DNA of 64,000 nt from Haplodiscus bocki. Taxonomy: Eukaryota. This document shows, one piece after another, positions 46,870 to 64,000 of the stretch. The stretch's first letter is position 1. Each line of letters opens with the position of its first letter. The position numbers were made by a program, and so were the translations under genes. The DNA is taken from NCBI GenBank assembly GCA_965655095.1, contig OZ296651.1, positions 28,148,001-28,212,000 on the forward strand, given 5' to 3'. The notes beneath the pieces are model-generated. The model searched no databases, had not been told where the DNA came from, and worked only from the letters and a program-made list of their open reading frames with translations.

Positions 46870-48312
46870 TTAAATTAGATCGTTGTTACCGTCATATGCT
46901 GGAGGATCCGGAGAGATTGAATCCGACTGTGACGGGGTTTCTGAAGACGGAGTTTGCTTGGGTTGAAGCACATTGCCAGCTGCTGAAATAGATCTCCTTC
47001 CCCAACGGTTTTCCACAAAAATTTCTGACCCAATGTATGAAGCGAAGGGATACGCCACTTCTCCATGTTCCTGCTTGTCCAAACCAAGTTCTTCAACTCT
47101 AGCCGGTACTCTCAAGAGTCCAGCAAAATGAAGTCCAAAAAACATGGGGCCTGTGGTTATAATAACCCACCCTGTGATAACCAGTGCTCCGAAGATGTTC
47201 CAAAACAGTTGTTTGAACGAGTGGGCATCCCATTCATAAAGAACGCCTGCATCTTTTGCAAACAAACAAACGGCAATTACACCCCAAAGGCCACCCCCAT
47301 AATGAACAGCAAAAGCGTCCAGAGGATCATCGATGCCCAGCTTGAAAATACCTTCGCTGTACCCCCAGAAAACAATGCCGCCAACAACACCCACAAATGC
47401 AGCAGCCCATGGATCCACAGCATCGCAACCGGCGCATATGGAAACCATACCAGTAAGGAACCCGTTTATACACCCCAAGAGGGTAAATTTTTTGGTGGGA
47501 ACATAATAAATTAAAACCACCGTAAGACCTCCACAGGATCCCGAAATCATTGTGTTGACCAGAATTTTTCCAATAACAGCCCCGTCACCTGGCTGAGTAA
47601 TGGACGCTTGGGAGCCTCCGTTGAAAGCAAAGAATCCAAAAATGAGAATGAAGGCCCCGAGGCACATGAGGGGAACTGTATGTCCAAAAACCCGCACATG
47701 CTTTCCATCAACTACTTGATCCAAACGGGGTTTCAGAGCCAGGGTTCCAAGAAGTCCAGCCACACCGCCCACCATGTGAACAACTCCACTGCCAGCAAAA
47801 TCTTTGTAGGAAATTTCCTCCCACCAGCAATCGTTCGCAAGCCATCCTTTTTCATTCCACGTCCAATGAACTACTATCGGGTAAACAAACCCAGTTAAAA
47901 CAAAACTGTAGACGAAATAAGCAGTGAACCGAGTTCGCTCAGCCATGGCTCCCGAGACGATAGTTGCAGCTGTTGCCGCGAAAACAAAGTGGAAAAAGTA
48001 GTGAGGATACAAATTGGACGGAAGGTTAATAAGGAAGAAATTTTTGTATCCCAGGAAGAAGTTTGAGTCCTCTCCAAAAGCCCAAGCGTACCCACAAACC
48101 CAGAAAATGATAGCTGCGATAGCTGAATCCATCAAATTTTTCATCAAGATGTTGGTCGTATTTTTAGCTCTCACCGCTCCAGCCTCCAAAAATGCGAACC
48201 CAGCTTGCATGAAGAAAACAATCATGGAAATTACTATCAGAAAAAAGTTGTCGATATTTTCTCTCAAATAGTCCCATTCCTCTCTCGATACGCTGGATTG
48301 AATGGCAGCCAT
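46870..48312 (-). CDS. amt: Ammonium transporter (Amt family), intronless coding region, ~480 aa
   Basis: FFMQAGFAFLEAGAVRAKN, DFAGSGVVHMVGG, FNGGS, IDDPLDAFAVH motifs; both pore His residues present; first ATG at 48312. Confidence 0.95.
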   Translation of the reverse strand: MAAIQSSVSREEWDYLRENIDNFFLIVISMIVFFMQAGFAFLEAGAVRAKNTTNILMKNLMDSAIAAIIFWVCGYAWAFGEDSNFFLGYKNFFLINLPSNLYPHYFFHFVFAATAATIVSGAMAERTRFTAYFVYSFVLTGFVYPIVVHWTWNEKGWLANDCWWEEISYKDFAGSGVVHMVGGVAGLLGTLALKPRLDQVVDGKHVRVFGHTVPLMCLGAFILIFGFFAFNGGSQASITQPGDGAVIGKILVNTMISGSCGGLTVVLIYYVPTKKFTLLGCINGFLTGMVSICAGCDAVDPWAAAFVGVVGGIVFWGYSEGIFKLGIDDPLDAFAVHYGGGLWGVIAVCLFAKDAGVLYEWDAHSFKQLFWNIFGALVITGWVIITTGPMFFGLHFAGLLRVPARVEELGLDKQEHGEVAYPFASYIGSEIFVENRWGRRSISAAGNVLQPKQTPSSETPSQSDSISPDPPAYDGNNDLI

Positions 48313-48530: not shown

Positions 48531-49440
48531 AACAAGACGGCCAGCTAGCACCGGCATATTTTTCGCCCAACTACAAATATTTTGATCAACTTTGCAAACG
48601 GTCAAAAACAAAACAAAACAAAACTGTTTTGATTTTAGTTTTCAAAGAGTTCTTACAAACATCAATTCGACCACTGATTTCTGTACTTTCTGCAAAAGGG
48701 TATCACGATTTTCCGTTGAAAAATTTTTGTCTCACAGTGCCGAAAAATTTCGTCGAGGGACCCTTCTGTGTTTCAGAAAATTTCTGGTACCGAAAAATGT
48801 TAGGGATAAGAGAGGGGGCGAGTATCACGATTTTCTGTCAAAATTGTTTTGTCTGACAGTGCCGAAAAACTTCGTAGGGGAACCCTTCTGTGCTTCACAA
48901 AAGTTCCAGTATCGAAAAAATTTATGGATATGAGGGGGGGAGGAGGAAGGGAGTATCACAATTTTCTGTCGAAAATTTTTTGTCTCACAGTGCCGAAAAA
49001 TTTGTAGGTGAACCCTTTAGTGTGTCATTAATTTCGGGTATCGAAAAATGTTATGCTTCAGAGGGTTATGTCACGATTGTTCGTCGAATTTTTTTGTCTC
49101 GCAGTACCGAAAAACTTTGCAGGGGAACCCTTCTGTGCTGTGTTTCGGAAAGTTTCCGGTAGCGAAAAGGTTTATGGATGAGAAGGGGGGAGTATCAAAA
49201 TTTTGCGGCGAAAAATTTTTATCTCACAGTGCCGGAAAATTTGCAGGGGAACCCTTTAGGGTGTCACTGATTTCGGGTATCGAAAAATTTTATGCTTCAG
49301 AGGGTTATGTCACGATTTTCCATCGAAATTTTTTTGTCCCACAGTACCGAAACATTTCATAGAGGAACTCTTCTATGCTGTATTTCAGAAAATTTCTGAT
49401 AGCGAAAAAGTTTATAGATAAGAGGGAGGGGGAAGTATCA
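48531..49440 (-). mobile_element. Helentron/DINE-1-like repeat with internal tandem array, interrupted by the viral insertion
   Basis: Minus-strand 3' end GCCGGTGCTAGCTGGC hairpin + CGTCTTGTT; ~120-bp units (tctcacagtgccgaaaaa..ggaaccc..gtatcgaaaaa..gggagtatca) break abruptly at 49440. Confidence 0.65.
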
Positions 49441-49448
49441 ATAATATA

Positions 49449-49820
49449 GGGTATTCCCTTTAATACCAGTAGCTCCTCATCGACCTCATTCGCTTCGCTC
49501 ATTTGATCGATTCGTCACACTGGTATTAAACGGAATACCCACGCTCGCTCGTCACTTCGTTCCTCACCGGCTCATTCGCTTCGCTCATTCACCTCTCGCT
49601 TATATTATTGCTCGGCTATGCCTCGCCTTTCTCGCTTCGCTCGTGTACTTATACGATCATGATAATTATAAGTGTTTATATGATTACAATCTGGCCAAGC
49701 AAAGATATACGTTATTATCATCGCTCGTCACTTCGTTCCTCACCGGCTCTGTTCGCTTCGCTCACTATCGCCTATCGCTTATATTATTGCTCGCCTATGG
49801 CTCGCCTTGCTTCGCTCGTG
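49449..49820. repeat. Terminal hairpin (49449-49540) and two ~100-bp direct repeats rich in GCTTCGC
   Basis: Arms GGGTATTCCCTTTAATACCAGT / ACTGGTATTAAACGGAATACCC (21/22 complementary); repeats at ~49545-49645 and ~49721-49820. Confidence 0.9.
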
Positions 49821-50162
49821 GGAATTCGTGAAAGTATACAATTATGTTGAATTAGAAATAAAATTGAAATTATTCGATTTCTTTTTATTCGATAGAATTC
49901 TTTCATGATATCTTGCGTTTCTCTCTCCTCGTAATACAAACTTTTTAGATTTGTCGTTATTTTTTAAAATATAGATACTTACAATTATATTTGTAATTAT
50001 ACTAGAGATATTTACAATTATATGAGTACTTATACGATCACGATAATTAGGTGATGTACAATTATACGAGTATAGATACTAGAGTATACATACAATTATA
50101 AGTGTTTATATTTTGTCTAGTTTTTTTCGAAGTGTTCTTTTGATTTTACAACCATTTATAAG

Positions 50163-50745
50163 TTAACAATTAGGTTCTAAATTCATCCAATTTATTGGTA
50201 CATAATCACGTATTTTTCCTAATGGTCCTCTATGTTTAAAACCCCAATGTTTAATAATAATATGTCTTTTATAAGGTTTAGACATATTATCTAATGTTTT
50301 TATTAAATTAGGATTGTGATCAATTATTTGACATATTTTAAGCTCAAGCATAGTTTTTGGTAATTGAAAATAATGACTATATGTAGCAGATTCTAAATCA
50401 GTAATAAAGATGATCTCGATGTTTACTAAATCATTTTGTCTACAACTATATTTCTTTATTATTTTTTCCTTAATGTTAATAGCATTAGGAACACTATCCC
50501 ATATTACTTTATTCTTTTCACAAAAATAATCATTTTGTATTTTACACCAACAACTGAAGGCATGAAATTTTATATTGTAATCATAAATATGTTTATTTAT
50601 AACATTATCTATTTCAACTACAGATACGTTGGGTATATATCATTTATTAACAACACTTAAAGATAATTGTTTATGTAACTTTGTTTTATTATGACTACTT
50701 TTATTTAAAATATATTTATCGCTGATATCACAATAATATTTTTTA
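50163..50745 (-). pseudogene. Disrupted viral ORF, paralogue of 52013-52716
   Basis: CDI..H.KTKLH, then I..H...YN.KF, then MLELKICQII.HNPNLI; broken by stops/frameshift. Confidence 0.55.
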
Positions 50746-50753
50746 TTTATCAT

Positions 50754-51137
50754 TTACTCAGAAGAAATCTGTCTGAAGATTGGGAGTTTATATTTGTATA
50801 TGTCTTCGTCTTTATTTTCTGATTTTGTTCTATAAGGAAAATAGAGATTTTCATAATCTAATTCCTCATCTTTTCCTATAAGAGCTGGGACGATTAAGCT
50901 CCTCATCTTGATCCAATCATCTCTTAACTCACCATTTTCATTATCAATTAATTTTATTAGCATTAGTTTCGCTTGTTTAAGTATATTATATTGTATTCCA
51001 AAATCGATTCCTTCTAGGTCCAAAAAATAATTATGAATCATTGATATATATAATATGTAATGAGTTTTATTATTATTATCAGTTATACCAATATCGATAT
51101 AATCCAAAACATCTTTCAAATTGTTTACTCCATTCAT
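50754..51137 (-). CDS. Viral hypothetical protein
   Basis: 127-aa ORF with TAAATG start. Confidence 0.65.
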   Translation of the reverse strand: MNGVNNLKDVLDYIDIGITDNNNKTHYILYISMIHNYFLDLEGIDFGIQYNILKQAKLMLIKLIDNENGELRDDWIKMRSLIVPALIGKDEELDYENLYFPYRTKSENKDEDIYKYKLPIFRQISSE

Positions 51138-51179
51138 TTATATAGTAAAAACTATTATTATATACTAGGAAGCATAAGT

Positions 51180-51620
51180 CTAATCATAATTTGAGTGAAT
51201 TTTATTTATTTCTATTTTTTCGTGTTTCATAATATTATCATAATCAATATCAAACAACTTATCAATATCATTTATATCAATATTTTTTCTCTGTACAAAT
51301 CTAAAATATGGTGTTAAATAATGAATATTTTCCCAACCTAATGCAATACTATATGGTGTTAAATTATTACCCATATTTGAGATATATTTATATATTCTAT
51401 CATTAGTTAAAAAACTACATACTTGGTCACCTCCAATATAGATGTATTTATGTTTATTATTTTCTATACCTATTCTAAGTAAAATTGTATTTCCATTAAA
51501 CAGTTCTTTATCCTCGGATCCTGATAATTTTGTCATGTTACATAGCTGAGATCTACCGATAAATGTTTCCATAGGATTAACTTCATATATGATATTTTTA
51601 TCTTCAGAAACATCTTCCAA
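51180..51620 (-). CDS. Viral hypothetical protein (5' end uncertain)
   Basis: 146-aa ORF with GNTILL...YIYIG...Y.S.MGNN..PY..A motif; non-ATG start in the track. Confidence 0.6.
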   Translation of the reverse strand: MEDVSEDKNIIYEVNPMETFIGRSQLCNMTKLSGSEDKELFNGNTILLRIGIENNKHKYIYIGGDQVCSFLTNDRIYKYISNMGNNLTPYSIALGWENIHYLTPYFRFVQRKNIDINDIDKLFDIDYDNIMKHEKIEINKIHSNYD

Positions 51621-51704
51621 TCTCTGTACTCTAATCCATCCTTTATTGCGAGCAGTAATAGCTTAGCGTTCACAAATATTTTCAGCTACATATATAATTG
51701 TCAT

Positions 51705-51911
51705 TTATATAGAATAAAAAATACTTTCAAGATACTTTATTCTACTAATTTTCATTTTTAATTCCATATCTAAATCTGAAATCATTATTGACATTATATG
51801 TATTAATTCTTTAAGAATATTATTTTGAATCAAATTATCATATACTATCTCAATTTTACGATCATAAGTTAATCTATTATATCTATCTAACATATTATTT
51901 TTTTCATACAT
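51705..51911 (-). CDS. Viral small coiled-coil hypothetical protein
   Basis: 68-aa ORF in the packed gene array. Confidence 0.45.
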   Translation of the reverse strand: MYEKNNMLDRYNRLTYDRKIEIVYDNLIQNNILKELIHIMSIMISDLDMELKMKISRIKYLESIFYSI

Positions 51912-52012
51912 ATGAAAGGATCTTTTTTAATTACATTTATAAAAGCTTCCATTTTAAATATGGAGAAAATCAAGATCTTTTATAATTTATTTCAAATAAT
52001 CTTATCTAAAAA

Positions 52013-52198
52013 ATGGATTGTGAAAATCAACTAGTTATTTATTGTGAAGATGGTGAATATCGAGTATATTGCGATGTCTGTGATTATTTATGTATTCAAA
52101 GATATTATAAAAACCATTTAAAGTCACAATCTCATATAAATAATGTTCGCAAAACAGAAGAAATAAGCAAAGCATTTGAAGCAATCTCACTTAATTAA
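52013..52198 (+). CDS. Viral small zinc-finger protein (matrin/U1-like C2H2)
   Basis: CDVC-x-HLKSQSH. Confidence 0.65.
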   Translation: MDCENQLVIYCEDGEYRVYCDVCDYLCIQRYYKNHLKSQSHINNVRKTEEISKAFEAISLN

Positions 52199-52200
52199 AT

Positions 52201-52716
52201 ATGACTCATCTCTGTTACCATTGCAATAAAAATGATAAATGTTTTTATACAAAATATATCATTAATAATGTCAAAATCAACGAATTTGATAAAATATTTA
52301 ACTATTATATCACTACTCATAATCGAAAATTTGATTTTTACTATATTGACTGCGAATTTGAATTACTATTCGAAAACAATTACATGGCAAATATAGAAAT
52401 AAGTTTTCATTATAATACAGATTTTATTAATATAAAGAGTTATTTATTATTTTATATTGATAGTTGTAAATCTGGAGGATATATATTTAATAATATCAAT
52501 CATATGATTATCAACACTATTAGTTGTATGTGTAATATGAATTATAGATATTATATAAATCAACCAATGTCAATGCTTGAACGACGAATTAATTTTATTA
52601 TTGCTAGAAATCCACAATTAATAAATTGTCTTAATCGAAATAAAAACCATTCTCTTATCAAAAAAATATTCTCATATTCCATTATTATAAATGTATGTGA
52701 CAAATATTACCGATGA
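52201..52716 (+). CDS. Viral hypothetical protein
   Basis: 171 aa; PMSMLERRIN.IIARNPQLIN motif. Confidence 0.65.
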   Translation: MTHLCYHCNKNDKCFYTKYIINNVKINEFDKIFNYYITTHNRKFDFYYIDCEFELLFENNYMANIEISFHYNTDFINIKSYLLFYIDSCKSGGYIFNNINHMIINTISCMCNMNYRYYINQPMSMLERRINFIIARNPQLINCLNRNKNHSLIKKIFSYSIIINVCDKYYR

Positions 52717-52876
52717 TTATGATAATATGACGACATCTAATTGTACAGATAGTGAAAATGATATTGATATAATTATACCAGTTTTATTATTCACAATTCC
52801 ATGTGGGCTATCATTTATCTGTTTAATGAGTTTGATTGTATACACAATAATTAAACCTTTATTCAATAGGAAATAA
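52691..52876 (+). CDS. Small single-pass membrane protein
   Basis: Acidic N-terminus with NxT sequons, long hydrophobic segment, basic C-terminus. Confidence 0.55.
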   Translation: MYVTNITDDYDNMTTSNCTDSENDIDIIIPVLLFTIPCGLSFICLMSLIVYTIIKPLFNRK

Positions 52877-52906
52877 AATATTCGTATACTTATTTGTCAA
52901 ATATAA

Positions 52907-53584
52907 ATGGAGAAGTTTCTTTATCCAACTCATCCCGTTAGGTGTATTATAACGGGACCAAGCAACGTGGGTAAATCAGTATTTTTAACAAATTTAATTT
53001 TAAATATTATAAACGAATATGATAAAATATACATCTATTCACCAAGTCTTCATCAAGAGTTATATCAAAAATTAAATAAATGTTTTAGTAATCATATACC
53101 AATTCATATAATACCAAATATTTTAAACGAAGAAGATATTGATATAGTTATTGAAGAAGTAATTAATAATAAAGACTTTCAAAAATCAGATGTCGAATTA
53201 GAAACATTTGATAATATAGAAAATTTAAAATTTCCTCAAGAATATGAAAATAATAGTATCATTATCCTAGATGATTTAAATCAAAAAGAGATGGATGATC
53301 CTAGAGTTCAAGCTATGTTTAAAAGATCTAGACATAATAATTTATCTATTTTTATAATAAGTCAAGATTACTATGAATTAAGTAAAAAAACAATACGATG
53401 TAATGGTAATATCTATCATATATTTAAACCAAACAATTTCAGAGATGTGATTAATCTTTATCAAGATAAAGCATCTATGGATATGAATCTTAATGAATTT
53501 AAATTATTAACTAGTATTTGTTGGAATGAAAAATATAAACCTCTTACAATTGATATGGCAAAAGATAAATATACAGGTCGTTAA
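52907..53584 (+). CDS. A32-like DNA packaging ATPase (stop likely slightly premature)
   Basis: Walker A GPSNVGKS, Walker B IIILDD, RSRHNNLS; the frame reads on to ~53632 after the TAA. Confidence 0.92.
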   Translation: MEKFLYPTHPVRCIITGPSNVGKSVFLTNLILNIINEYDKIYIYSPSLHQELYQKLNKCFSNHIPIHIIPNILNEEDIDIVIEEVINNKDFQKSDVELETFDNIENLKFPQEYENNSIIILDDLNQKEMDDPRVQAMFKRSRHNNLSIFIISQDYYELSKKTIRCNGNIYHIFKPNNFRDVINLYQDKASMDMNLNEFKLLTSICWNEKYKPLTIDMAKDKYTGR

Positions 53585-53674
53585 AGGCTTGGATTAAGTT
53601 CAATATTTGTTCCTGATACGACCCCTTTTTAAAATATATTTACACATATACAAGTGTTTATTTGAGTATTATAA

Positions 53675-54564
53675 ATGAGTATTTATTCAAATGTTACTGA
53701 AAAAGTTTTAGATAATCTTCGTAAACTAGCACAACAACAGAAAGAGGAAAGAGCTGTCAAAATTAAAAATAGAATTTTGAAACAAACACATGACGTTTAA
53801 TTAGCAGAAAGCTTATCACCTATTACTAAAGAATTAAAAAAGTCTACCAAAAAAATAAGCGAAGTTATCAAAGAATCAAATTCTGAAAATGAAAATAATC
53901 AAGAGATAGTTCCTGTTGATATTGAATCAGAAGATGAAAATGTTCAAACTAATTTAAGAGCCCTTCCAAACAGTTCTATGTTCAGTGATCAAATGACAAA
54001 AACATTAGGTAGATTAATGTCTAGCGCTAATTCTCTAAAAATAAAATCTACTCCTTTTGGCGCAACAATTCTTGGAGTTCCAATTTACACATTAGGTGGA
54101 GATACAATACAAATAAAAGATAATGTTTATGATTTAACTCCTGAAATATATAAAGCCGTATCTTATACAGGATATGATGGTAAAACTATGAAAAACGAAA
54201 ACGATATCTTAATGCTTAATAATATTATCAGAGATTTAGGATACACAGGTCGTGGAGATTATCAATCAAAAGGAAAAACATTTCTCACAGAAAAACTTCC
54301 AAATTAGTTGAAGAAATTCAAAACAGAACTTTCGAAGAAATTACAGACGACTCTAATGATTTACAAGGAGAAGGAGTTAAAATAACTATTCCCAACAATA
54401 TAATCGACATCTATACCAGACTTGAAATTTTACTAGGATTAAAACTATCAGGACATACTGATACTCTCACAGAAGCAAGCAATTTAATAGATGAATTATA
54501 CAAACTAGGTGAAATACGAAATAAACAGCATTATCGAAATGCTCTTAACAAATTTTCTAACTAA
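53675..54564 (+). pseudogene. Conserved Polinton virion-core-type ORF, disrupted
   Basis: MSIYSNVT... stop at 53798, frameshift ~54300; C-terminus LQGEG..IYTRLEILLGLKLSGH....EA..LIDEL...GEI. Confidence 0.65.
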
Positions 54565-54832
54565 TATTATTACAATAATAAAATTTTTATAATAATATAA
54601 TTTTCATACATGTATAAGAATAATTATATTCGAATACGTGTTATTATACCTTATTGAATAATTATAATTGGAAATACAAGTGTAATAATTTCATTTGAAC
54701 AAATGTAGTTATACAATATTATTTATTATAAATACCTAAGTATATTTACAATTATTCAAGTAGTTTTACGAGTATTTATATGAGTACGTATACTAGAGTA
54801 TACTTACAAATATAAGTATTTATTACTCATAA

Positions 54833-55618
54833 ATGGAACTTCCTAGTAAATTATTAGAACAGATTGTTTATAATGCTAGACCTAACATAGAAGAGCATAT
54901 TCTAATCATTATGGATAAAAGTAATCATAAAGAGCATTTATCTCAACCACTTCAAACAAATAATAAACAATTTAAAATTGCAGTCACTTTTCTAACCGCA
55001 TATAATGGAATTTTCAATATTACAAGTAAAAATAATAATTTTTATTTCTCAAAATCAATCATCGATGATAATCATTTTCAGTCCATTACTATTCCACAAG
55101 GTAGTTATGAAATAGAAAGTTTAAATGACGAGATTAAAAGGATTATTATTGATGAAGGTTATTTTACTCTCGAAGAATATCCGTTTTCAATCAAGCCTAA
55201 TTTTTCGACTCTTGGATCTATTATAGAAATCTCCAATGAAGAGTCTGCTATATCATTCAAACCAGATGACAGTATAAGAGATCTCTTAGGATTTAATAAG
55301 ACTACAATATATGAAAAATATAATTTATCACCTAATCCCGTTGATATAATTTCGTTTGATAATATTTTCATTGAAACTAATATTGCTCAAGGAATGATCT
55401 TTAAACAACAGAGGACTGGTATAATACACAATTTCACTATGACCGTTAACCCAGGATACAAATATGTGGAACGCTTTGAAGGGGGAATTAGTTGGTATAT
55501 GCTTCAGACTAATGATTTTATTTCAAGTATTAATTTTAAATTTAAAAATGAAAACAATGAATTAGTATCATTTAATGGACAATCAGTGACTTTTAAATTA
55601 TCTATCAAGGAAGTTTAG
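54833..55618 (+). CDS. Minor capsid protein (penton, single jelly-roll)
   Basis: YN.IFNIT..NN.F, IPQGSYEIESLN, PGYK..E, I..I......N...V.FNG. Confidence 0.85.
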   Translation: MELPSKLLEQIVYNARPNIEEHILIIMDKSNHKEHLSQPLQTNNKQFKIAVTFLTAYNGIFNITSKNNNFYFSKSIIDDNHFQSITIPQGSYEIESLNDEIKRIIIDEGYFTLEEYPFSIKPNFSTLGSIIEISNEESAISFKPDDSIRDLLGFNKTTIYEKYNLSPNPVDIISFDNIFIETNIAQGMIFKQQRTGIIHNFTMTVNPGYKYVERFEGGISWYMLQTNDFISSINFKFKNENNELVSFNGQSVTFKLSIKEV

Positions 55619-55781
55619 GACATGGATACTTACAATTATATGAGTATTTATACCAGCGTATACTTACAATTATATGGGTATTTATACATACTTCTAAAAA
55701 TATTTCTGTGTTTGTACACTTATGTTTGTATTTATACTAGAGGTATACTTACAATTATTTGAGTATTTTACTTCTTTTCAA

Positions 55782-55928
55782 ATGACGAAATCAAGGTATA
55801 ATCCTAAATATAAAATTAAATTACAAAACCAAATACCAAAAGATATTAAATCTAGTAATTTACCTCAAAATTTACAAAGTTTCAAAGACAAATTATTTTC
55901 CGGAAATGGATTTATTGTTTATAAGTGA
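55782..55928 (+). CDS. Small basic putative core protein
   Basis: MTKSRYNPKYK...FSGNGF; lies between penton and MCP. Confidence 0.4.
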   Translation: MTKSRYNPKYKIKLQNQIPKDIKSSNLPQNLQSFKDKLFSGNGFIVYK

Positions 55929-56003
55929 ATACTCGTATACTTGTAAGTGTAATTGTATAATTACATGTATTCGTGCATGAATATCAAATTTTATATCTAA
56001 TAG

Positions 56004-57313
56004 ATGAGTGCTAACGACTTTCAATTGATAGATGACGAAAAAATTGATGATTCAATCATAAAACGAGATTTCATAAAAATTTACCATCAATCTGGAGCTA
56101 ACGTAGATGCTGAAAATTCACAAATTAAATTCTATTTCGGTGAAAATCATAATTTTATTCAAGTAGGTAATGGCTATCTGGAATTTGATATAAGAATTAG
56201 AAGAGATGATGGTAATGCTTTCAGAGTCCCTGTCAATGTTGGAGATCCGAATGATATAATTAGATTAGTTAATAACGCATTTGCTTATACAATTCATGGT
56301 GCTAGAATATCAACATCAGCAGGAGTAGAAATTGAACAAAACAAATATGTTGGCCCTATTTCAACCATTATGAGATTAGTAACAGAAAAAGATGGGGATT
56401 TATCTACATATTTTGATATAATTAATGAAAAAGAGAATGGTATCAAAGATTCAACATTAAAACAAATACTCATCAACAATCACACTGAAGCTAATAGGGG
56501 TCTTATAAGAGGTCATCTACATTTGGAATATATATTTGGATTTGCAAGATCGTTTAAGAAAACAACAAAAGGACTCGGCTTCGAATTAGATTTACGAACA
56601 TCAAATAGAAAACGAGATATTCTGTACACGACATTAGACGATGATGATGTTAATGTTACTATTAACTGCATAAGTTTGTTTATTCCTCAATTAATACCAT
56701 CACCTGAAACACAAGTAATCTCCCACGAAGCAATTTCACATACTTTCACTTTATCATATGAATCTTGGACTACAGATAGAAAACCTGTTGATACAGCAAG
56801 AGAATTTCAACTAGATATATCATCAGCATCAAATATAAATAGTCCGTTATATCTTATAGCAGCACATCAGAAAACACAACGAGCCGATCCTGCTAACCCG
56901 GCTAAAAATCTATTCAACAACAGATTCAATAATGCTATTTTCGATCATGTTAACGTACGAAAATATTATTCAGAAATAGATGGTATTCGATACCCAAAAA
57001 ATCCTGTCATGGTTAATTATGAGGAAAACAATTATCTTGAACAATACCAAGCTTTAAAACTATTTTACAAAGAATATGTAGGTGATCAATTATTACCTCC
57101 TATTATAACATATGATAAGATGAAAGACTTTTATCCCATTCAAATAATCGACCTACGGTTCCAAGTAGACCACATATCACCAAAAAGATAAGATTGTTTG
57201 AAGAATACGATCCCAATCCAACTAATACTAATTTATATGTAATATTAATAAAACATAGAGAGATTAAAATGATTTCCGATGGTAATAAAATTATTAGTGT
57301 TGAAGTAGTGTAA
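56004..57313 (+). CDS. Major capsid protein (double jelly-roll), one frameshift at ~57187
   Basis: DDSI, YLEF, LVNNAFAY..EIE, FDH.NV....IDG.RYP, PI..IDL..Q; the C-terminus continues in another frame (IRLFEEY...ISVEVV). Confidence 0.88.
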
Positions 57314-57340
57314 AAAAAATATAAATTAAAAAATGATACT

Positions 57341-57682
57341 ATGAACGAATCTCAATTACAAAAAATTTATAATTATACTATATACCCCAGAGATTCAAAA
57401 ATATATTCAGATAAAGGATTTGTTAAAATAGACAACGGATCTCAAGGAGGATCTCATTGGACTTGTTTTATAGTGAAAGATAAAAAATCATACTATTTTG
57501 ATAGTTTCGGAGTTCAACCAGATAGATTTTTAATAAATCAATTACCTAAACCAATAATGTCTCATAATTATAAAATACAAGATAGAAATTCAAAATTATG
57601 TGGCTCATGTTGTTTATATTTTTTCTATTTAATTGAACGAATGAATTTTTATGATGCAATATTAAAAATGCATTTTGGTTAA
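57341..57682 (+). CDS. Adenain-like cysteine maturation protease
   Basis: GSHW, YFDSFG, IQ....LCG..C catalytic His/Asp/Gln/Cys pattern. Confidence 0.9.
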   Translation: MNESQLQKIYNYTIYPRDSKIYSDKGFVKIDNGSQGGSHWTCFIVKDKKSYYFDSFGVQPDRFLINQLPKPIMSHNYKIQDRNSKLCGSCCLYFFYLIERMNFYDAILKMHFG

Positions 57683-57688
57683 TTAAAT

Positions 57689-59017
57689 ATGCCGATAAAT
57701 GTATTTGGAAACTCTTCAAATAATTCTGAACAAAAAATTGATACTTCAATATTTGTACAAAAACCCTACTTAAGAACTAATTATATAGAAGCTAATATAG
57801 AAGAAGATATTGACTTAAAAAATCAATTTAGAATTAAAAATTTACCTGATCCCATAAGCATTAGAGAGCCAGCTCCAAAACATTACGTTAATATTTTATT
57901 CAACGATCCTAGTATAGTAAAAAACACTGAACATATAGATCTAAATGATAGAAATAATACTAATGCTAGATTTATACAAGTCAATCAATGGCCGCAGATC
58001 GATTCGCATCTAACACCTAGGTTGTATGTTGATAATGCCGTAGATGAATCATCATTAGTTAGAAATAATCAAGATAATGATTTTAATAATAATAACTTAA
58101 CGAATATAAATAGTATTACTTTAAATAAACAAGCAGAAAATGATAATGAAGTAATAACAAAAGCTTATGTAGATCAATTTCATCAAGAGAATGAACGATC
58201 TCGACGAGATTTAGGTATTAATTTTTATAATGAATCAAATGATTTGGTCAGGAATAATCAAGACAATGATCTCAATGATAAAAAAATAACAAATTTAGAT
58301 TCTATCACAGTTAATAGAAATGCTAGTTTAGATAATGAATTAGCAAACAAAAAAATATATCGATGACTCAATAGCGGAAGGTACATTGCTTAGATTTAAT
58401 CAAACATTAACAAATTATCTCAAAGTATCTGTTGGAAATGATACGTATAATTTAACTAAATATGATGAAATTCAATTGACTGATACAACAGTTATGAAAG
58501 CTAGAAACAATGGAGGTTATCTCCTACCATACTGGAGGATTGTATGTAATGATAAAAAGAACAATGGAAAAAAAACAAATTTTATAAAATCAACAAAAAC
58601 GAATTCTCCAACCGGATCATCAGGAGCAACGACTTTACCACCTGTAGGTACTGCATTCAAGTATATAGAAACAAGCTCAAATAATAATGGAAATAATGTT
58701 TTTGTTAGCTTGGCAAGAACTGATATCATTCAAATTACCAAAATAACATTCTAGTATAATAGATTTTCAATATCTGAAAATAATTTACGAGCTATGGGTC
58801 GGTTTAGAATTTAACTATTATTAGAAGATAACACCTGGTCAACGAGGTATAATATACCTATAATGATCAATATAGTGATTCATCAACTGATTGGACTCTT
58901 ATAAATTTAAATTTCACTGTAGAAAATTATGGTATTAAATTAATTTATGATGAGATAGACACAGCTCATGCTGATATGTGTTTTAGTAATATTACGATCA
59001 CACATTCTGTATATTGA
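57689..59017 (+). pseudogene. Fibre/spike-like protein with shaft repeats and a C-terminal MAM-like domain, disrupted
   Basis: Repeats I.NL..P....A.K.YV(D); frameshifts at ~58350 and ~58860, stops at 58752 and ~58812. Confidence 0.65.
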
Positions 59018-59058
59018 ATATTAACTCATATCCGAATATGAAAAATTTTATATTTTAA

Positions 59059-59301
59059 ATGAATAATGTAAATTATTTTAAAGATTTATTTGAATCAATA
59101 CCTGATTATAAAAAGATTGTCTTATTAATGTTCTTAATTAAAAACGATGATAATTTATTATACGAATGTGGATTTTTAAAAGGTGATATTAATTTTTTAT
59201 ATAAAGAATTTAAAAATATATTACTTGAACTGAATGAAGAATACTTAGATCATATTAAAAACGAAGAAGAAGCAATAATTGAAAAGATTTTAAATAAATA
59301 A
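59059..59301 (+). CDS. Viral hypothetical protein
   Basis: 80-aa ORF, TAAATG start; resembles the next ORF (LL.L....D..L....F...[DE]IN). Confidence 0.65.
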   Translation: MNNVNYFKDLFESIPDYKKIVLLMFLIKNDDNLLYECGFLKGDINFLYKEFKNILLELNEEYLDHIKNEEEAIIEKILNK

Positions 59302-59520
59302 ATGGAAGCCTATTTTGCTACAATGTTTGAAGATCTTCGCCATGAGAGATCGTTGATATTATTACTATCACTAACAGATCCAGATATATTAAAACAATCC
59401 AAATTCACAGATGATGAAATAAATATAATAAAAAATCTTGCTCTTGAAAAATTACACAGACAACGAATACTAAAAGAGCATATTGCAATGGATTTGTTAG
59501 AAAAACAATTTTCTGATTAG
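59302..59520 (+). CDS. Viral hypothetical protein
   Basis: 72-aa ORF, stop-start coupled to the previous ORF. Confidence 0.65.
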   Translation: MEAYFATMFEDLRHERSLILLLSLTDPDILKQSKFTDDEINIIKNLALEKLHRQRILKEHIAMDLLEKQFSD

Positions 59521-59523
59521 TAA

Positions 59524-60234
59524 ATGAGTGGATATCCGAATTTAAAACCTGATGATGTTGAATTATTAAAAATAAAAACGAAAGATGATCAGCTAAAAGA
59601 ACTTCAATACAAAACAGAAAAATATGATCACGAAAGTATGTTAAAACCATTGAAAATAGATAATGAATATTATAAAAAGAAATATAAAAATTTAAATAAA
59701 AAGAAAGTATTATTAATCATTACAGAAATTTTGATTGGATCGGGATCTGCTGTTTCAACGTCCGCTATGTCGATAGTAAACCCAAGCATTGGTATTGTAT
59801 TGACTTCTTCAACAGCTTTAATAACATCTCTTGCTATATTAATCACGAATGAATATATAAGTAAACTAAAATTACGTTATACTAAACTAAGAGACTGGAT
59901 TAATTTTATTACAATTCTGTATGAGAAAACATTAAATCAATCTATGGTTGATAAGAAAATTGATGAAAAAGAAGCCTTAGAATTGAAGAAAATATATAAT
60001 CATTATATTGATAAACGAAAAGAAATTATGAACTCGACTAAATTCAAAGTTGAAGATATTTTTGGTGATGTAATAAGTAAAGATTCTCTTTCACCAGAAC
60101 AGATAACTAAATTAAATAATTTTTTTATCAAAAATGATGTGAATATAAATATAAAAATCAAAATTAACTTTTTTAAACCTGGAAAAGGGAAATATAAAAA
60201 TTATGAGCCCTCAGCTCCTCCAGCTTATGAATAA
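59524..60234 (+). CDS. Coiled-coil + two-TM hairpin membrane protein with late-domain motifs
   Basis: YPNL at residues 4-7, hydrophobic hairpin VLLII...LAILIT, C-terminal PSAPPAYE. Confidence 0.8.
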   Translation: MSGYPNLKPDDVELLKIKTKDDQLKELQYKTEKYDHESMLKPLKIDNEYYKKKYKNLNKKKVLLIITEILIGSGSAVSTSAMSIVNPSIGIVLTSSTALITSLAILITNEYISKLKLRYTKLRDWINFITILYEKTLNQSMVDKKIDEKEALELKKIYNHYIDKRKEIMNSTKFKVEDIFGDVISKDSLSPEQITKLNNFFIKNDVNINIKIKINFFKPGKGKYKNYEPSAPPAYE

Positions 60235-60249
60235 ATTATATTAATATAA

Positions 60250-60408
60250 ATGACAAAGAGTTATTGCTTGGGAGGTCGTCATTATAGTGATACTAATATT
60301 ATCACTCAATATGAAAAAGTAAATCCGAGAAATAAAAAACTAGTTAAAATTATCAAAGGTACTTGTTCTATTTGTGGTCGTAATAAATCACAAATTTTTG
60401 CTAAGTAA
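60250..60408 (+). CDS. 52-aa zinc-ribbon-like protein (below ORF-track cutoff)
   Basis: MTKSYCLGGRH...KGTCSICGRNKSQIFAK; TAAATG start. Confidence 0.7.
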   Translation: MTKSYCLGGRHYSDTNIITQYEKVNPRNKKLVKIIKGTCSICGRNKSQIFAK

Positions 60409-60837
60409 ATGACACGAGGAGAAGATTTTGTTAAAAAAGGATAATGTAGTAAAAATCACTGCTCATCTATGTCAAATTCAGCGTGGACTGATTTAAATAG
60501 TAAAGGTAATATATTAAAACTCCATGACAAATGTCCTAATCCTAAATGTGGTTGTCAGAAGATAATAACTTTTACTCCACATCAAAATATGCTTGAGGTT
60601 AGATCGATAAAATCTAAATTACAAAAAATTTTCAGAGGAACAAAAACAGCGTGGGAAAAATTTATTAAACCCGGCTTAAAAATGGCAACACCACTGATAT
60701 CAGCTGCTGTGGCTGTAAAAACAAAAAATCCTCAATCAGCTGAAGTTACGAATAGTATTTTAAAATCATTAACAGGTGGTAAGATATTGAGTCTCACAGA
60801 TATGCACGATAACGGATTAAGATTAAAAGTAATGTGA
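60409..60837 (+). pseudogene. Putative membrane-active/core protein, one internal stop at ~60442
   Basis: MTRGEDFVKKG*; Cys/His cluster then basic amphipathic helices IKSKLQKIFRG..AWEKFIKPGLK; LTGG site. Confidence 0.6.
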
Positions 60838-60866
60838 TTTCATTTCAAATATAGTCTAAAGATAAA

Positions 60867-61427
60867 ATGGAAGGCATGAAGAGATGTTCGAATTGTGATA
60901 ATGAAAAAGAATTATCTCAATTCAAATTTAGAAAAGATACACAGAGATATAGAAGTGAATGTATACAGTGTTCTAATATTAAACATAAAGAATGGAGAAT
61001 TATTAATCCTGACAAAGTAAAACAAATTCAGAAAAAATATAATGAACAAAACAGAGAAAAAAGAAATATATATCTTAAAAACAAACGAGAAACAGATGTT
61101 AATTTTCGTTTAATCAACAATACTAGAAACAGAATTTATAAATCTTTAAAAAGTATGACAAAACAATCATCAACGAAAGAAATTTTAGGAATTGATATTG
61201 AGACATATAAAAAGTGGCTTGAATTTCAGTTCACACCTGAGATGAATTGGTCAAATATTGAGATCGATCACGTCAAACCTATATGTATGTTTGATGTATC
61301 CAAAGATGAAGATTTAAAAGAAGCATTCAATTGGAAAAATACCCAGCCTTTATTAAAAGAAGTACATTCTCATAAAGGTATTAAATTTAATTTCTTAGAT
61401 TATCAGATTATCAACTTCAATTTATAA
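60867..61427 (+). CDS. HNH (EndoVII-like) endonuclease with N-terminal zinc knuckle
   Basis: CSNC..C..C; M.W.N..IDHVKP...FD......AFNWKNTQPL; C-terminus altered by an 8-bp duplication. Confidence 0.8.
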   Translation: MEGMKRCSNCDNEKELSQFKFRKDTQRYRSECIQCSNIKHKEWRIINPDKVKQIQKKYNEQNREKRNIYLKNKRETDVNFRLINNTRNRIYKSLKSMTKQSSTKEILGIDIETYKKWLEFQFTPEMNWSNIEIDHVKPICMFDVSKDEDLKEAFNWKNTQPLLKEVHSHKGIKFNFLDYQIINFNL

Positions 61428-61451
61428 AAGCATATCAATTCATTAAGCTAA

Positions 61452-62306
61452 ATGAGGAGAGATTTAACGAAAATATTCATTGATGAAATATATTCCAAAC
61501 CACCTCGAAAAAATTATCCAACCAATAAAATAGTATATAATCACATTGATGAAATCTGTTCAATTGATTTAGCTGATATGATAGACTACAAAATTTCAAA
61601 TAATAAAGGATTTAGATATATATTCATCGTGATTGATAATTTCAGTAAATATTTATGGGGTATACCACTTAAAAATAAATATAGTCAAACTATCACAAAC
61701 GAATTTTCGAACATTCTGACTAAGTCAAAACGAAAGCCTATCAAATTAGAATCGGACCGAGGATCTGAATTTTATAATAGTATTTTTCAGAACTTCTTAA
61801 AATTAAAAAATATACATCACTATTCACGTTTTACTGATAAAGGACCTAGTATAGCAGAACGTGTTATTAGAACCATACGTACTTTTTTAAAGAAGCCAGT
61901 GTTTGAGAAAGGAAATGCTGATTGGGTAAGTGAACTAACATCTGTTATTAAAAAGTACAATAATACCATTCATCATTCAACTAAAATGACTCCCATTCAA
62001 GCTTCAAAAAAATCCAACGAAAAAATAGTATATAACAATCTCGAAGACAATAGAGAAGTTCGAAAACCAAAATTTAAGTTAGGACAACTAGTCCGTACTG
62101 CAGATAATAAAAGAGTATTCTCGAAAGGAGACAGTACAAATTACAGTTATAAATTATATACAATAACTGAAATCATACACAATACTATACCTCCATATAG
62201 AATCAACTATTTACCCGAGAGATATAATGAAAATTTATTATTACCTACCAAATTAACCCTTGTAGAAAACAACCAAGTTATGAAAGAATTGAATTTAATT
62301 CAATAA
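61452..62306 (+). CDS. Retroviral-type (rve, DDE) integrase
   Basis: IDLADM, IDNFSKY, SDRGSEF, AERVIRT, YNNT.H..TKMTP, KFKLGQLVR. Confidence 0.93.
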   Translation: MRRDLTKIFIDEIYSKPPRKNYPTNKIVYNHIDEICSIDLADMIDYKISNNKGFRYIFIVIDNFSKYLWGIPLKNKYSQTITNEFSNILTKSKRKPIKLESDRGSEFYNSIFQNFLKLKNIHHYSRFTDKGPSIAERVIRTIRTFLKKPVFEKGNADWVSELTSVIKKYNNTIHHSTKMTPIQASKKSNEKIVYNNLEDNREVRKPKFKLGQLVRTADNKRVFSKGDSTNYSYKLYTITEIIHNTIPPYRINYLPERYNENLLLPTKLTLVENNQVMKELNLIQ

Positions 62307-62321
62307 TATAATAAATAAAAA

Positions 62322-62840
62322 ATGGAATTAACTCAAGACCAAATAATTGAAAAATATGGTAAACGATGTAGGCATTGTAATCGAATCACTTTACTACCAT
62401 ACGAATATGAATTTACTTGCATAGCATGCGGATATAATGTGAATAAACGCAAACATGAATTATCAAAAATACAACGTAAGAAAATAAATTTCATAAACCG
62501 ATTAAAATACGCTGCAATCAAAATATTTTCCATATGCGTAGATTTATATAAAATTTATGAAGGTGATGATTATGATGAAATATACAATGTTTTATCAATA
62601 TTAAAAAATAAAAAATTAAAAATAAATAATACTTTAATCGATATATATAAAGATATGTTGAAAAATCCTAATTTTGAACAGAATAAATATTCATTAACTT
62701 CAACAGGTATTTATAAAATTGGTCATGATAGTATACGGTTAATGAAATGGATTTGTTTTTATGTTAGGTCATATTATGAAAATATAAATTATTATGATTT
62801 GATGGGTTCTCTTTGTAGATATATTATTGATATCACATAA
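62322..62840 (+). CDS. Zinc-ribbon protein, paralogue A
   Basis: CRHC...CIACGY.VNK.KH...RLKYA. Confidence 0.75.
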   Translation: MELTQDQIIEKYGKRCRHCNRITLLPYEYEFTCIACGYNVNKRKHELSKIQRKKINFINRLKYAAIKIFSICVDLYKIYEGDDYDEIYNVLSILKNKKLKINNTLIDIYKDMLKNPNFEQNKYSLTSTGIYKIGHDSIRLMKWICFYVRSYYENINYYDLMGSLCRYIIDIT

Positions 62841-62996
62841 TTTCTTGTATACGAATATTGATTATTATTTTATTTGTATGAATAAGTTAACTTATATACT
62901 GATTACTATTGATTGGTATAGTATAATAACATGTATTCATATACGAATAATAAATATATATATTCTTATAATTGTAAGTATTTAAATTTCATTTAA

Positions 62997-63809
62997 ATGA
63001 AATATCTAAACGGTGAATATTACGTTGAAGTAAAGGATCATCGATATAAAATTCATCCAACTGAAAATATTATTTTACGCAAACGAGATGAACCAAAATC
63101 TCTTAGAACTCAGTATCAAGTTCAGAATGAGGCTCAGATAAGAAAGAATCAGAAAGTCATCAAAAATGATAATAATGAACTAGTAGTAAAAAATTATCCC
63201 AAAAATAAACAACCAATTATTCAACAACAAAAATTTAAACCACCCAATTGTCCATCCTGCAAACAAAATACTTGGTTAGAATTTGATAAAGGTTATTATT
63301 GCACAAATTGTGATTATATTATTAACAAACAAAAACATCAGATAGATAAAAAGGTTCTTAGACAAGATCATGATTTTTCAACTAGACTAAATTATGCTAA
63401 TAAAAAAGTAAGAGAAATATATATAAATATGGCTAATACTACTTATAATTCATCAGAAGATATGATTAATAAATTACAAAGTTTAAAAGGAAAAACAAAA
63501 TTAAAATTTTATAAAAATATAAGTAATTATTATATTGAAATGAAAAATAAAAATTTTCAAACTAATAATCAAGATCCTTTTGCTAAAAATGCTCAAGGTA
63601 TTGGTAAAATTTATCATGAAGTTTTATTGTTAATGAAACTTCTACAGACTAAACCAAAAGTTAAGGATTTGAATAATAATTATCATGATTTATATTATAC
63701 TGTTATTAAAACTAGAGATGAAAATAAGAATATAGATAATCAATATGAGAATGATGAAAACGATTATATTGATGTTAATGATTATATAACTCCTAATCAT
63801 TATATCTGA
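62997..63809 (+). CDS. Zinc-ribbon protein, paralogue B
   Basis: CPSC...CTNCDY.INK.KH...RLNYA. Confidence 0.75.
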   Translation: MKYLNGEYYVEVKDHRYKIHPTENIILRKRDEPKSLRTQYQVQNEAQIRKNQKVIKNDNNELVVKNYPKNKQPIIQQQKFKPPNCPSCKQNTWLEFDKGYYCTNCDYIINKQKHQIDKKVLRQDHDFSTRLNYANKKVREIYINMANTTYNSSEDMINKLQSLKGKTKLKFYKNISNYYIEMKNKNFQTNNQDPFAKNAQGIGKIYHEVLLLMKLLQTKPKVKDLNNNYHDLYYTVIKTRDENKNIDNQYENDENDYIDVNDYITPNHYI

Positions 63810-63897
63810 ATTAAACCTCGTGAAACAATATTGAGTTGAGATAGTGGAGAAAAATGAGATCTTGGATAAATCATTTCAAGTAATTCCTCCTATATAA

Positions 63898-64000
63898 ATG
63901 GAGATGATAATTAATAACGAGACTAAAAAATTATCACGAAATAGAAAAAGAAGAATGGATCGTAAAAATAAAATTAATAATGATATGAAATTATTATTAA
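63898..64000 (+). CDS. Viral ORF, truncated by the window end
   Basis: TATAAATG start, MEMIINNETKKLSRNRKRR... open to the end. Confidence 0.5.
   Translation, partial: MEMIINNETKKLSRNRKRRMDRKNKINNDMKLLL

Follow-up and report, generated by a model that had tools for sequence, protein, structure and literature searches.

The window analysed in this study, a stretch of 64,000 nt from contig OZ296651.1 of Haplodiscus bocki, raises the question of how one small membrane protein comes to carry all three classes of late-domain motif, and what these might be for. The preliminary description had reported YPNL near the N-terminus and PSAPPAY at the C-terminus of a single ORF, which is correct for the window copy (236 aa). 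Its wider claim that one protein holds all three classes stands in so far as the motifs are conserved and selected, but PSAPPxY is reached in the family solely via a frame change at the heptamer U_UUU_UUA. We propose, with a probability of roughly 0.6, that a −1 frameshift produces an isoform that recruits TSG101 and NEDD4, probably for particle release.

The element that holds this gene is a Polinton/Maverick of about 18.3 kb, as had been thought, extending from window position 49440 to 3744 bases beyond the window end (Table 1). Its terminal inverted repeats (TIRs) are 94.7% identical to each other, and a 6-bp target-site duplication (AGTATC) flanks it on both sides. Besides capsid, packaging ATPase and integrase genes it has a protein-primed type PolB, which lies in pieces beyond the window end (PF03175 in two of the three pieces), the gene being broken here; the copy in the window is decayed. 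Two further ORFs, 54833–55618 and 57341–57682, which from their position and motifs we take to be candidates for the minor capsid protein and the adenoviral-type protease, gave no Pfam match. Downstream of the candidate protease, ORFs with repeats at 57689–58754 (+) are possibly fragments of a fibre-like gene, also with no Pfam match. Many Polintons typically have AG-repeat termini, unlike the ends of this one (49440–49460), which begin AATAATATAGG. About 1.1 kb from the insertion lies an intron-free host ammonium transporter gene (46870–48312, −; PF00909). The host genome is 1.5 Gb in size.

Table 1. Coordinates of the Polinton and of the features of its two-helix protein gene (window positions unless stated otherwise)
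Feature	Position	Strand	Remarks
Left TIR	49440..49963		524 bp
A32-like packaging ATPase	52907..53584	+	Pfam PF04665, E 5.6e-11
Double-jelly-roll major capsid protein	56004..57191	+	Pfam PF21738, E 5.1e-13
SLATT-like two-hydrophobic-helix protein gene	59524..60234	+	236 aa, read through into the tail frame here
N-terminal YPxL (YPNL, residues 4–7)	59533..59544	+	candidate ALIX ligand, on both isoforms
Hydrophobic hairpin, residues 63–109	59710..59850	+	between basic coiled-coil helices
T-run at slippery site	60120..60127	+	7 T (60120–60126) here; U_UUU_UUA (6 T) in most copies
Transframe tail	60121..60234	+	alternating polar/hydrophobic stretch, basic linker, late-domain motif
Usual zero-frame stop of the family	60140..60142	+	out of frame in window copy
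PSAP and PPxY overlap (PSAPPAY, residues 229–235)	60208..60228	+	candidate TSG101 and NEDD4-family ligands
Retroviral-type integrase	61452..62306	+	Pfam PF00665, E 8.8e-12
Right TIR	L122:3221-3744, beyond window end		524 bp; pairs with left TIR

The single 236-aa ORF is a quirk of the decayed window copy, caused by a rare slip in the T-run, and is not typical of the family. With one set of flanks, a run of 6 T was found in 852 exact genomic matches, one of 7 T in 29 and one of 5 T in 17; a narrower pattern gave 446 (6 T) and 16 (7 T), and 6 T was present in all three of the metagenome contigs found. Among the best 120 of 2187 homologues, the protein was 204–205 aa long in 90 and longer than 220 aa in 20. 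The check across copies that the preliminary description had proposed has a divided outcome: the motifs are kept, but the one-ORF frame is not that of the family (852 copies with 6 T vs 29 with 7 T). The layout of the frames was read from 121 copies. Thirty of these, the window copy among them, came from one set of loci; a search with the flanks only gave 682 places, and of the first 100 of these 91 were added, the other nine being either in the set already (5) or near-duplicates (4). In typical copies the zero frame reads AAT TTT TTA, that is, U_UUU_UUA, and the protein ends at 204–205 aa right after it, with the stop at the same codon in 102 of the 121. The exact heptamer is present in 82 copies; among the 39 without it, 7 have TTTTTCA in common. 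The late-domain motif lies in the −1 frame in 79 copies, in the 0 frame in 15 and in the +1 frame in 9, and was not found in 18.

The PSAPPxY-bearing tail in the −1 frame of typical copies is about 37 aa long and has no ATG. From the heptamer on, 75 of the 79 copies have this frame open, and 77 of the 79 have no Met before the motif. A −1-frame stop stands immediately 5′ of the heptamer in 91 of the 121 copies of the window type (allele A) and in 24 of 30 copies of a second allele, B, and within four codons 5′ of it in 120/121 copies of allele A and 150/151 over both alleles. Entry into the −1 frame is therefore confined to the interval from the heptamer to the zero-frame stop, a stretch of 6–9 codons. 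The features of a frameshift cassette found here are an XXXYYYZ heptamer that is in phase and conserved beyond the need of the protein, followed by a selected open −1 frame without a start of its own. A hairpin or pseudoknot 3′ of the slip site is usual, not universal, in cassettes for −1 programmed ribosomal frameshifting. We detected no 3′ stimulatory structure when 60 of the 82 heptamer copies were folded and their minimum free energies compared with those of shuffled sequences, a method that covers structures other than pseudoknots (mean z −0.40 to +0.39; at most 5 of the 60 below −2), and frameshift efficiency may therefore be low.

The tail is under purifying selection, and in the −1 frame only. 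In the 76 gap-free copies with modal spacing (45 of the 121 being non-modal and left out), pN/pS over the proximal tail was 0.35 in the −1 frame vs 1.48 and 1.33 in the other frames, and stops occurred there in 3 copies vs 76 and 76. Variants shared by three or more copies had a synonymous/non-synonymous ratio of 29/57 in the −1 frame, singletons one of 6/50 (Fisher p=0.0013), with p=0.74 and 0.77 in the other two frames; the copies share ancestry, so these counts are of non-independent events, and 4 of the shared alleles score as stops relative to the commonest codon of their column. Taken alone, neither the motif nor the basic linker reached significance (p=0.14 each), with pN/pS 0.60 for the motif. 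An exchange between AGY and TCN serine codons takes two base changes. Among the 120 copies used for codon counts (one without a locatable motif being left out), AGY encodes the motif Ser in 59 and TCN in 53, the motif Tyr is kept in 107, and the wobble positions of the motif's Pro codons vary freely. Selection is visible in synonymous variation; the GC-richness of the motif codons, which had been put forward as an argument against chance, is no evidence, because Pro and Ala codons are always GC-rich. The slip site itself shows codon bias, with Phe as TTT in 82/82 copies (31/88 and 62/88 in other Phe columns) and Leu as TTA in 76/79, the highest of 21 Leu columns; this bias is explained in part by the −1 protein. 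The corresponding test in allele B does not discriminate. We also noticed that in both alleles polar and hydrophobic residues alternate along the proximal tail (60143–60180, +), a beta-strand-like pattern that could serve self-association or the binding of a partner.

Allele B (P0223-like) is 36% identical to allele A and occupies the same locus in the same element family, the neighbouring genes of the two kinds of element being mostly 65–80% identical. Of its 30 loci, 26 retain the heptamer and 21 have the motif in the −1 frame. Its zero-frame ending differs, its linker is longer, and the sequence on either side of its heptamer is divergent; recombination may account for a distal tail shared with allele A. 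One allele-B database protein, P0286, is fused like the window copy. Searches for other relatives gave little: a search for a third allele returned allele B alone, no distant relatives were found among viral contigs, and metagenomes yielded none for allele B and three close relatives for the joint alignment. A profile search of 1.84 billion sequences gave 1116 matches, mostly close-copy fragments among the 150 listed, and a DNA pattern combining slip site and motif hit 15 viral loci, none homologous. The exchange of alleles A and B at a single locus (L123–L152) of otherwise 65–80% identical elements suggests module exchange or diversifying selection.

The protein has two hydrophobic segments, with Kyte-Doolittle 19-mer peaks of 1.62 and 2.14, and both flanks of the pair are basic (7 and 5 K/R in 15 residues), so both ends are predicted to be cytosolic. 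The two-transmembrane hairpin drawn earlier, with both ends on the same side, agrees with these features, but its first helix is marginal. In an AlphaFold model from 70 sequences (pLDDT 63.5) the helices are long, the hairpin is of low confidence and the tail is disordered. Foldseek-type searches with this model gave no match at E≤0.001 in BFVD or PDB, the best being uncharacterised iridovirus proteins (E 1.8e-3), and there was no PDB sequence match. Similarity to SLATT proteins lies below threshold: the profile PF18181 gave E 0.088 and 13.3 bits, under the curated cut-off of 26.3, with 7 of 70 family members at E≤0.05 (best 0.009), and Foldseek to one viral SLATT protein gave E 0.041. The predicted protein can thus be called SLATT-like only. 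Atlas matches to unnamed viral and mollusc clusters (0.88–0.93), of low recognition, are leads only.

The P[S/T]AP, PPxY and YPxL motifs are conserved in the family. PSAP occurs in the −1 tails of 65/121 copies of allele A and 16/30 of allele B, and PPxY in 69/121 and 21/30. In a six-frame count over 50001–64000, PSAP and PPxY each occurred once; YPxL occurred five times and is therefore weak evidence by itself. YPxL was found in 83 of 113 located starts of allele A (YPx[LI] in 97; 8 of the 121 copies not located) and in all 30 starts of allele B. Many ALIX ligands have L or M before YPxL, a stricter consensus that none of 143 copies matches. YPDL is frequent across the YPxL starts, as in EIAV p9 (PMC8402826). 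Binding of the motifs to ESCRT and NEDD4 proteins is likely. A UEV (TSG101-like) gene is present in the host genome. Complex prediction of the tail with part of this UEV scored 0.56 vs 0.00 for the best control, with contacts agreeing at least 56% between runs and a partner pLDDT of at least 47. Passes with scores of this size (0.60 or below) were seen for only 5 of 78 solved complexes and for every one of the 4 mismatches, out of 180, that passed. The model thus gives a weak prediction of TSG101-UEV binding, and likeness to solved PTAP-UEV structures may explain the pass. A second host UEV-domain match (L185, G000:C1:62186947-62187237) contains an internal TAG and is possibly a pseudogene or an exon boundary.

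In the mechanism that we propose, zero-frame translation would stop shortly past U_UUU_UUA and yield a predicted membrane protein of 204–205 aa with two helices. At the heptamer a minority of ribosomes would likely shift −1 and make a longer, minor isoform with the PSAPPxY tail. The long isoform would bring in TSG101 and NEDD4-type ligases of the host, probably so that particles can leave without lysis, the shift fixing the ratio of abundant short subunits, with YPxL only, to rarer ESCRT-recruiting ones, both ends being cytosolic. The window copy would be a fossil in which the T-run slip fixed the long frame. The chances that egress is the purpose of the motifs seem to us evenly balanced. More tentatively, Polinton-class viruses may carry a dedicated, SLATT-like ESCRT egress protein, which this lineage would meter by a stimulator-free −1 frameshift that gives the TSG101/NEDD4 tail to a constant share of the subunits, with capsids budding quasi-enveloped and without lysis. 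The same frameshifted, ESCRT- and NEDD4-binding isoform might instead sort a pore-forming protein of SLATT type into vesicles or endosomes, leading to its turnover or export, or it might act in entry or trafficking. Such a role has precedents in adenovirus protein VI, which uses PPxY with Nedd4 at entry (PMC2841620), in PLV SLATT proteins, proposed as endosomal-escape pores (PMC12220804), and in LITAF, where overlapping P(S/T)AP and PPxY serve endosomal sorting (PMC5142333). We consider it a real but less likely alternative: a two-helix protein that is encoded in the virion gene block and combines motifs of all three classes resembles egress adaptors, e.g. bluetongue NS3. An iridovirus is known to use all three late-domain classes (PMC4880917).

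As to how the tail is made, we are confident that it is translated as an extension of the zero-frame protein, and a −1 shift by the ribosome is the probable source. Slippage of RNA polymerase, adding an extra U to the 6-T run, would yield an identical protein, and the lack of a detected 3′ RNA stimulator is in keeping with it; it is nonetheless improbable, since the run is merely 6 T, the A after it is kept (TTA 76/79) as the XXXYYYZ rule expects, and no RNA polymerase gene was seen among the ORFs of the element. Removal of a 44-nt intron (GTRART...CCTAG) could also join the zero frame to the motif frame: a donor-like GTRART lies over the zero-frame stop, an acceptor-like AG lies 44 nt downstream, and the spacing is 3n+2 in 112/120 copies. 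Yet the interior of this putative intron is selected as −1-frame protein (pN/pS 0.35; p=0.020), the AG is absent in 13 of 76 copies, 8 of which have an intact motif (vs 40 of the 63 with AG), and in 29 of 30 allele-B copies the stretch from heptamer to stop contains no GT, all of which makes such splicing very improbable. In contigs from four sequence runs of unstated kind, no indel relative to a 6-T copy was listed, and no 44-nt joint was among the 15 of 500 joints listed, which speaks neither for nor against these routes. The reading in which the long ORF is the functional gene, the short form a founder frameshift or assembly artefact and the tail a dead remnant is largely refuted: 20 of the 120 listed homologues are long (a ranking that a long query favours) and most genomic copies are decayed, but 6 T is found in 852 of 898 matches, with 5 T and 7 T rare and scattered over different flank variants, separate metagenome contigs carry 6 T, and the tail went on diverging under selection in 6-T lineages and in allele B.

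Separate initiation was also considered and, like splicing, fits poorly as a source of the tail. The preliminary description had warned that with one T fewer the protein would end early and leave the motif on a separate peptide of about 30 aa; the early end is indeed that of most copies, but the separate peptide is rejected, Met being absent before the motif in 77/79 copies and a nearby GTG being GTA in 26 of 76. Termination–reinitiation was rejected too, the ATG next to the stop being in the zero frame.

The closest working analogues of the proposed ribosomal frameshift and its product are alphavirus 6K/TF for recoding and bluetongue virus NS3 for function. The alphavirus gene has U_UUU_UUA in a small membrane-protein gene, where the −1 shift lengthens the C-terminus, that of TF being tied to budding, and it was likewise detected through codon conservation (PMC2569925, PMC12197650). 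It belongs to an RNA virus, however, and most alphaviruses have 3′ stimulatory structures, of which none was found in the Polinton gene; we found no mention of late domains of TF in these two sources, and the likeness is one of features rather than computed homology. Bluetongue virus NS3/NS3A has two transmembrane segments, a coiled coil and two isoforms, its PSAP and PPxY, the motifs also present in the Polinton tail, bind TSG101 and NEDD4, and it serves the non-lytic exit of a non-enveloped virus; unlike the Polinton, this is a dsRNA virus, and its isoforms come from alternative start codons (PMC7409164). In the Polinton protein, PSAP/PPxY is C-terminal and would be frameshift-gated, and there is an additional YPxL. 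HIV late domains lie on the zero-frame product, whereas in the Polinton gene the shift would add them, and no stem-loop was found there. HIV-1 gag-pol has the same heptamer (PMC2569925), HIV-1 p6 has the same motif classes, and Ebola VP40 has the same PTAP/PPxY overlap as the Polinton tail (PMC8402826). Phage lambda gpG/gpGT resembles the proposed system as a low-level −1 shift near a gene end in a dsDNA virus, by which a constant proportion of the product gains a binding domain, although it is bacterial and serves a tail-assembly chaperone, not a membrane adaptor (PMC5009743). Low-level, functionally relevant −1 shifts without a stimulator are described for tailed phages and influenza (PMC5009743).

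Among Polinton-class viruses themselves, the adintovirus/meldvirus ‘Slatt’ proteins are likewise two-helix proteins (PMC8502044, PMC11071296), SLATT being named in a figure legend of PMC8502044. Supplement file 2 of PMC11071296 holds at least 18 entries labelled Slatt. Inspection by eye shows YPx[LI] close to the N-terminus in 4 of these and PSAP in 3; one published entry, again by eye, has YPDL at the N-terminus and PSAPP at the C-terminus, as in the Polinton protein. In contrast to the Polinton gene, these motifs are in frame, and the relation is judged by eye and from sub-threshold SLATT matches. Late-domain motifs recurring at different positions would argue for a function of the Slatt class. 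The main texts searched on these proteins make no mention of late domains, and that of PMC11071296 has neither ‘late domain’ nor ‘Slatt’.

Frameshifting is known from relatively few DNA viruses of eukaryotes (PMC8310308), and for adintoviruses a −1 shift has been predicted, speculatively, for the Penton and Hexon genes only (PMC11071296). Maverick particles are reported as not observed (PMC8097293), and we found no account in the literature of how Mavericks/Polintons exit from cells. Recoding and the late-domain classes are both known; we found no report of Polinton late domains or of a frameshifted late-domain tail, so a frameshift-gated late-domain tail in a Polinton is apparently unreported, although subscription papers or supplements could hold an earlier mention. 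The hundreds of copies supply direct evolutionary evidence for one frameshift site. That a conserved two-helix protein carries late domains under selection points to an ESCRT route for Polinton exit. It also offers a testable role for the viral Slatt proteins, a class as yet uncharacterised, and is an argument for selection of these elements as viruses. The locus is also a warning for annotation, the functional C-terminus being invisible to ORF calling.

Directly after the tail, a conserved 52-aa ORF with Cys motifs (60250–60408, +) is present at 29/30 and 28/30 loci. It is followed by an ORF (60409–60837, +) that is interrupted by a single TGA in the window copy and in which a Cys-rich start is followed by a basic segment; this ends near LTGG-K, reminiscent of an adenoviral-protease site in a core-protein precursor.
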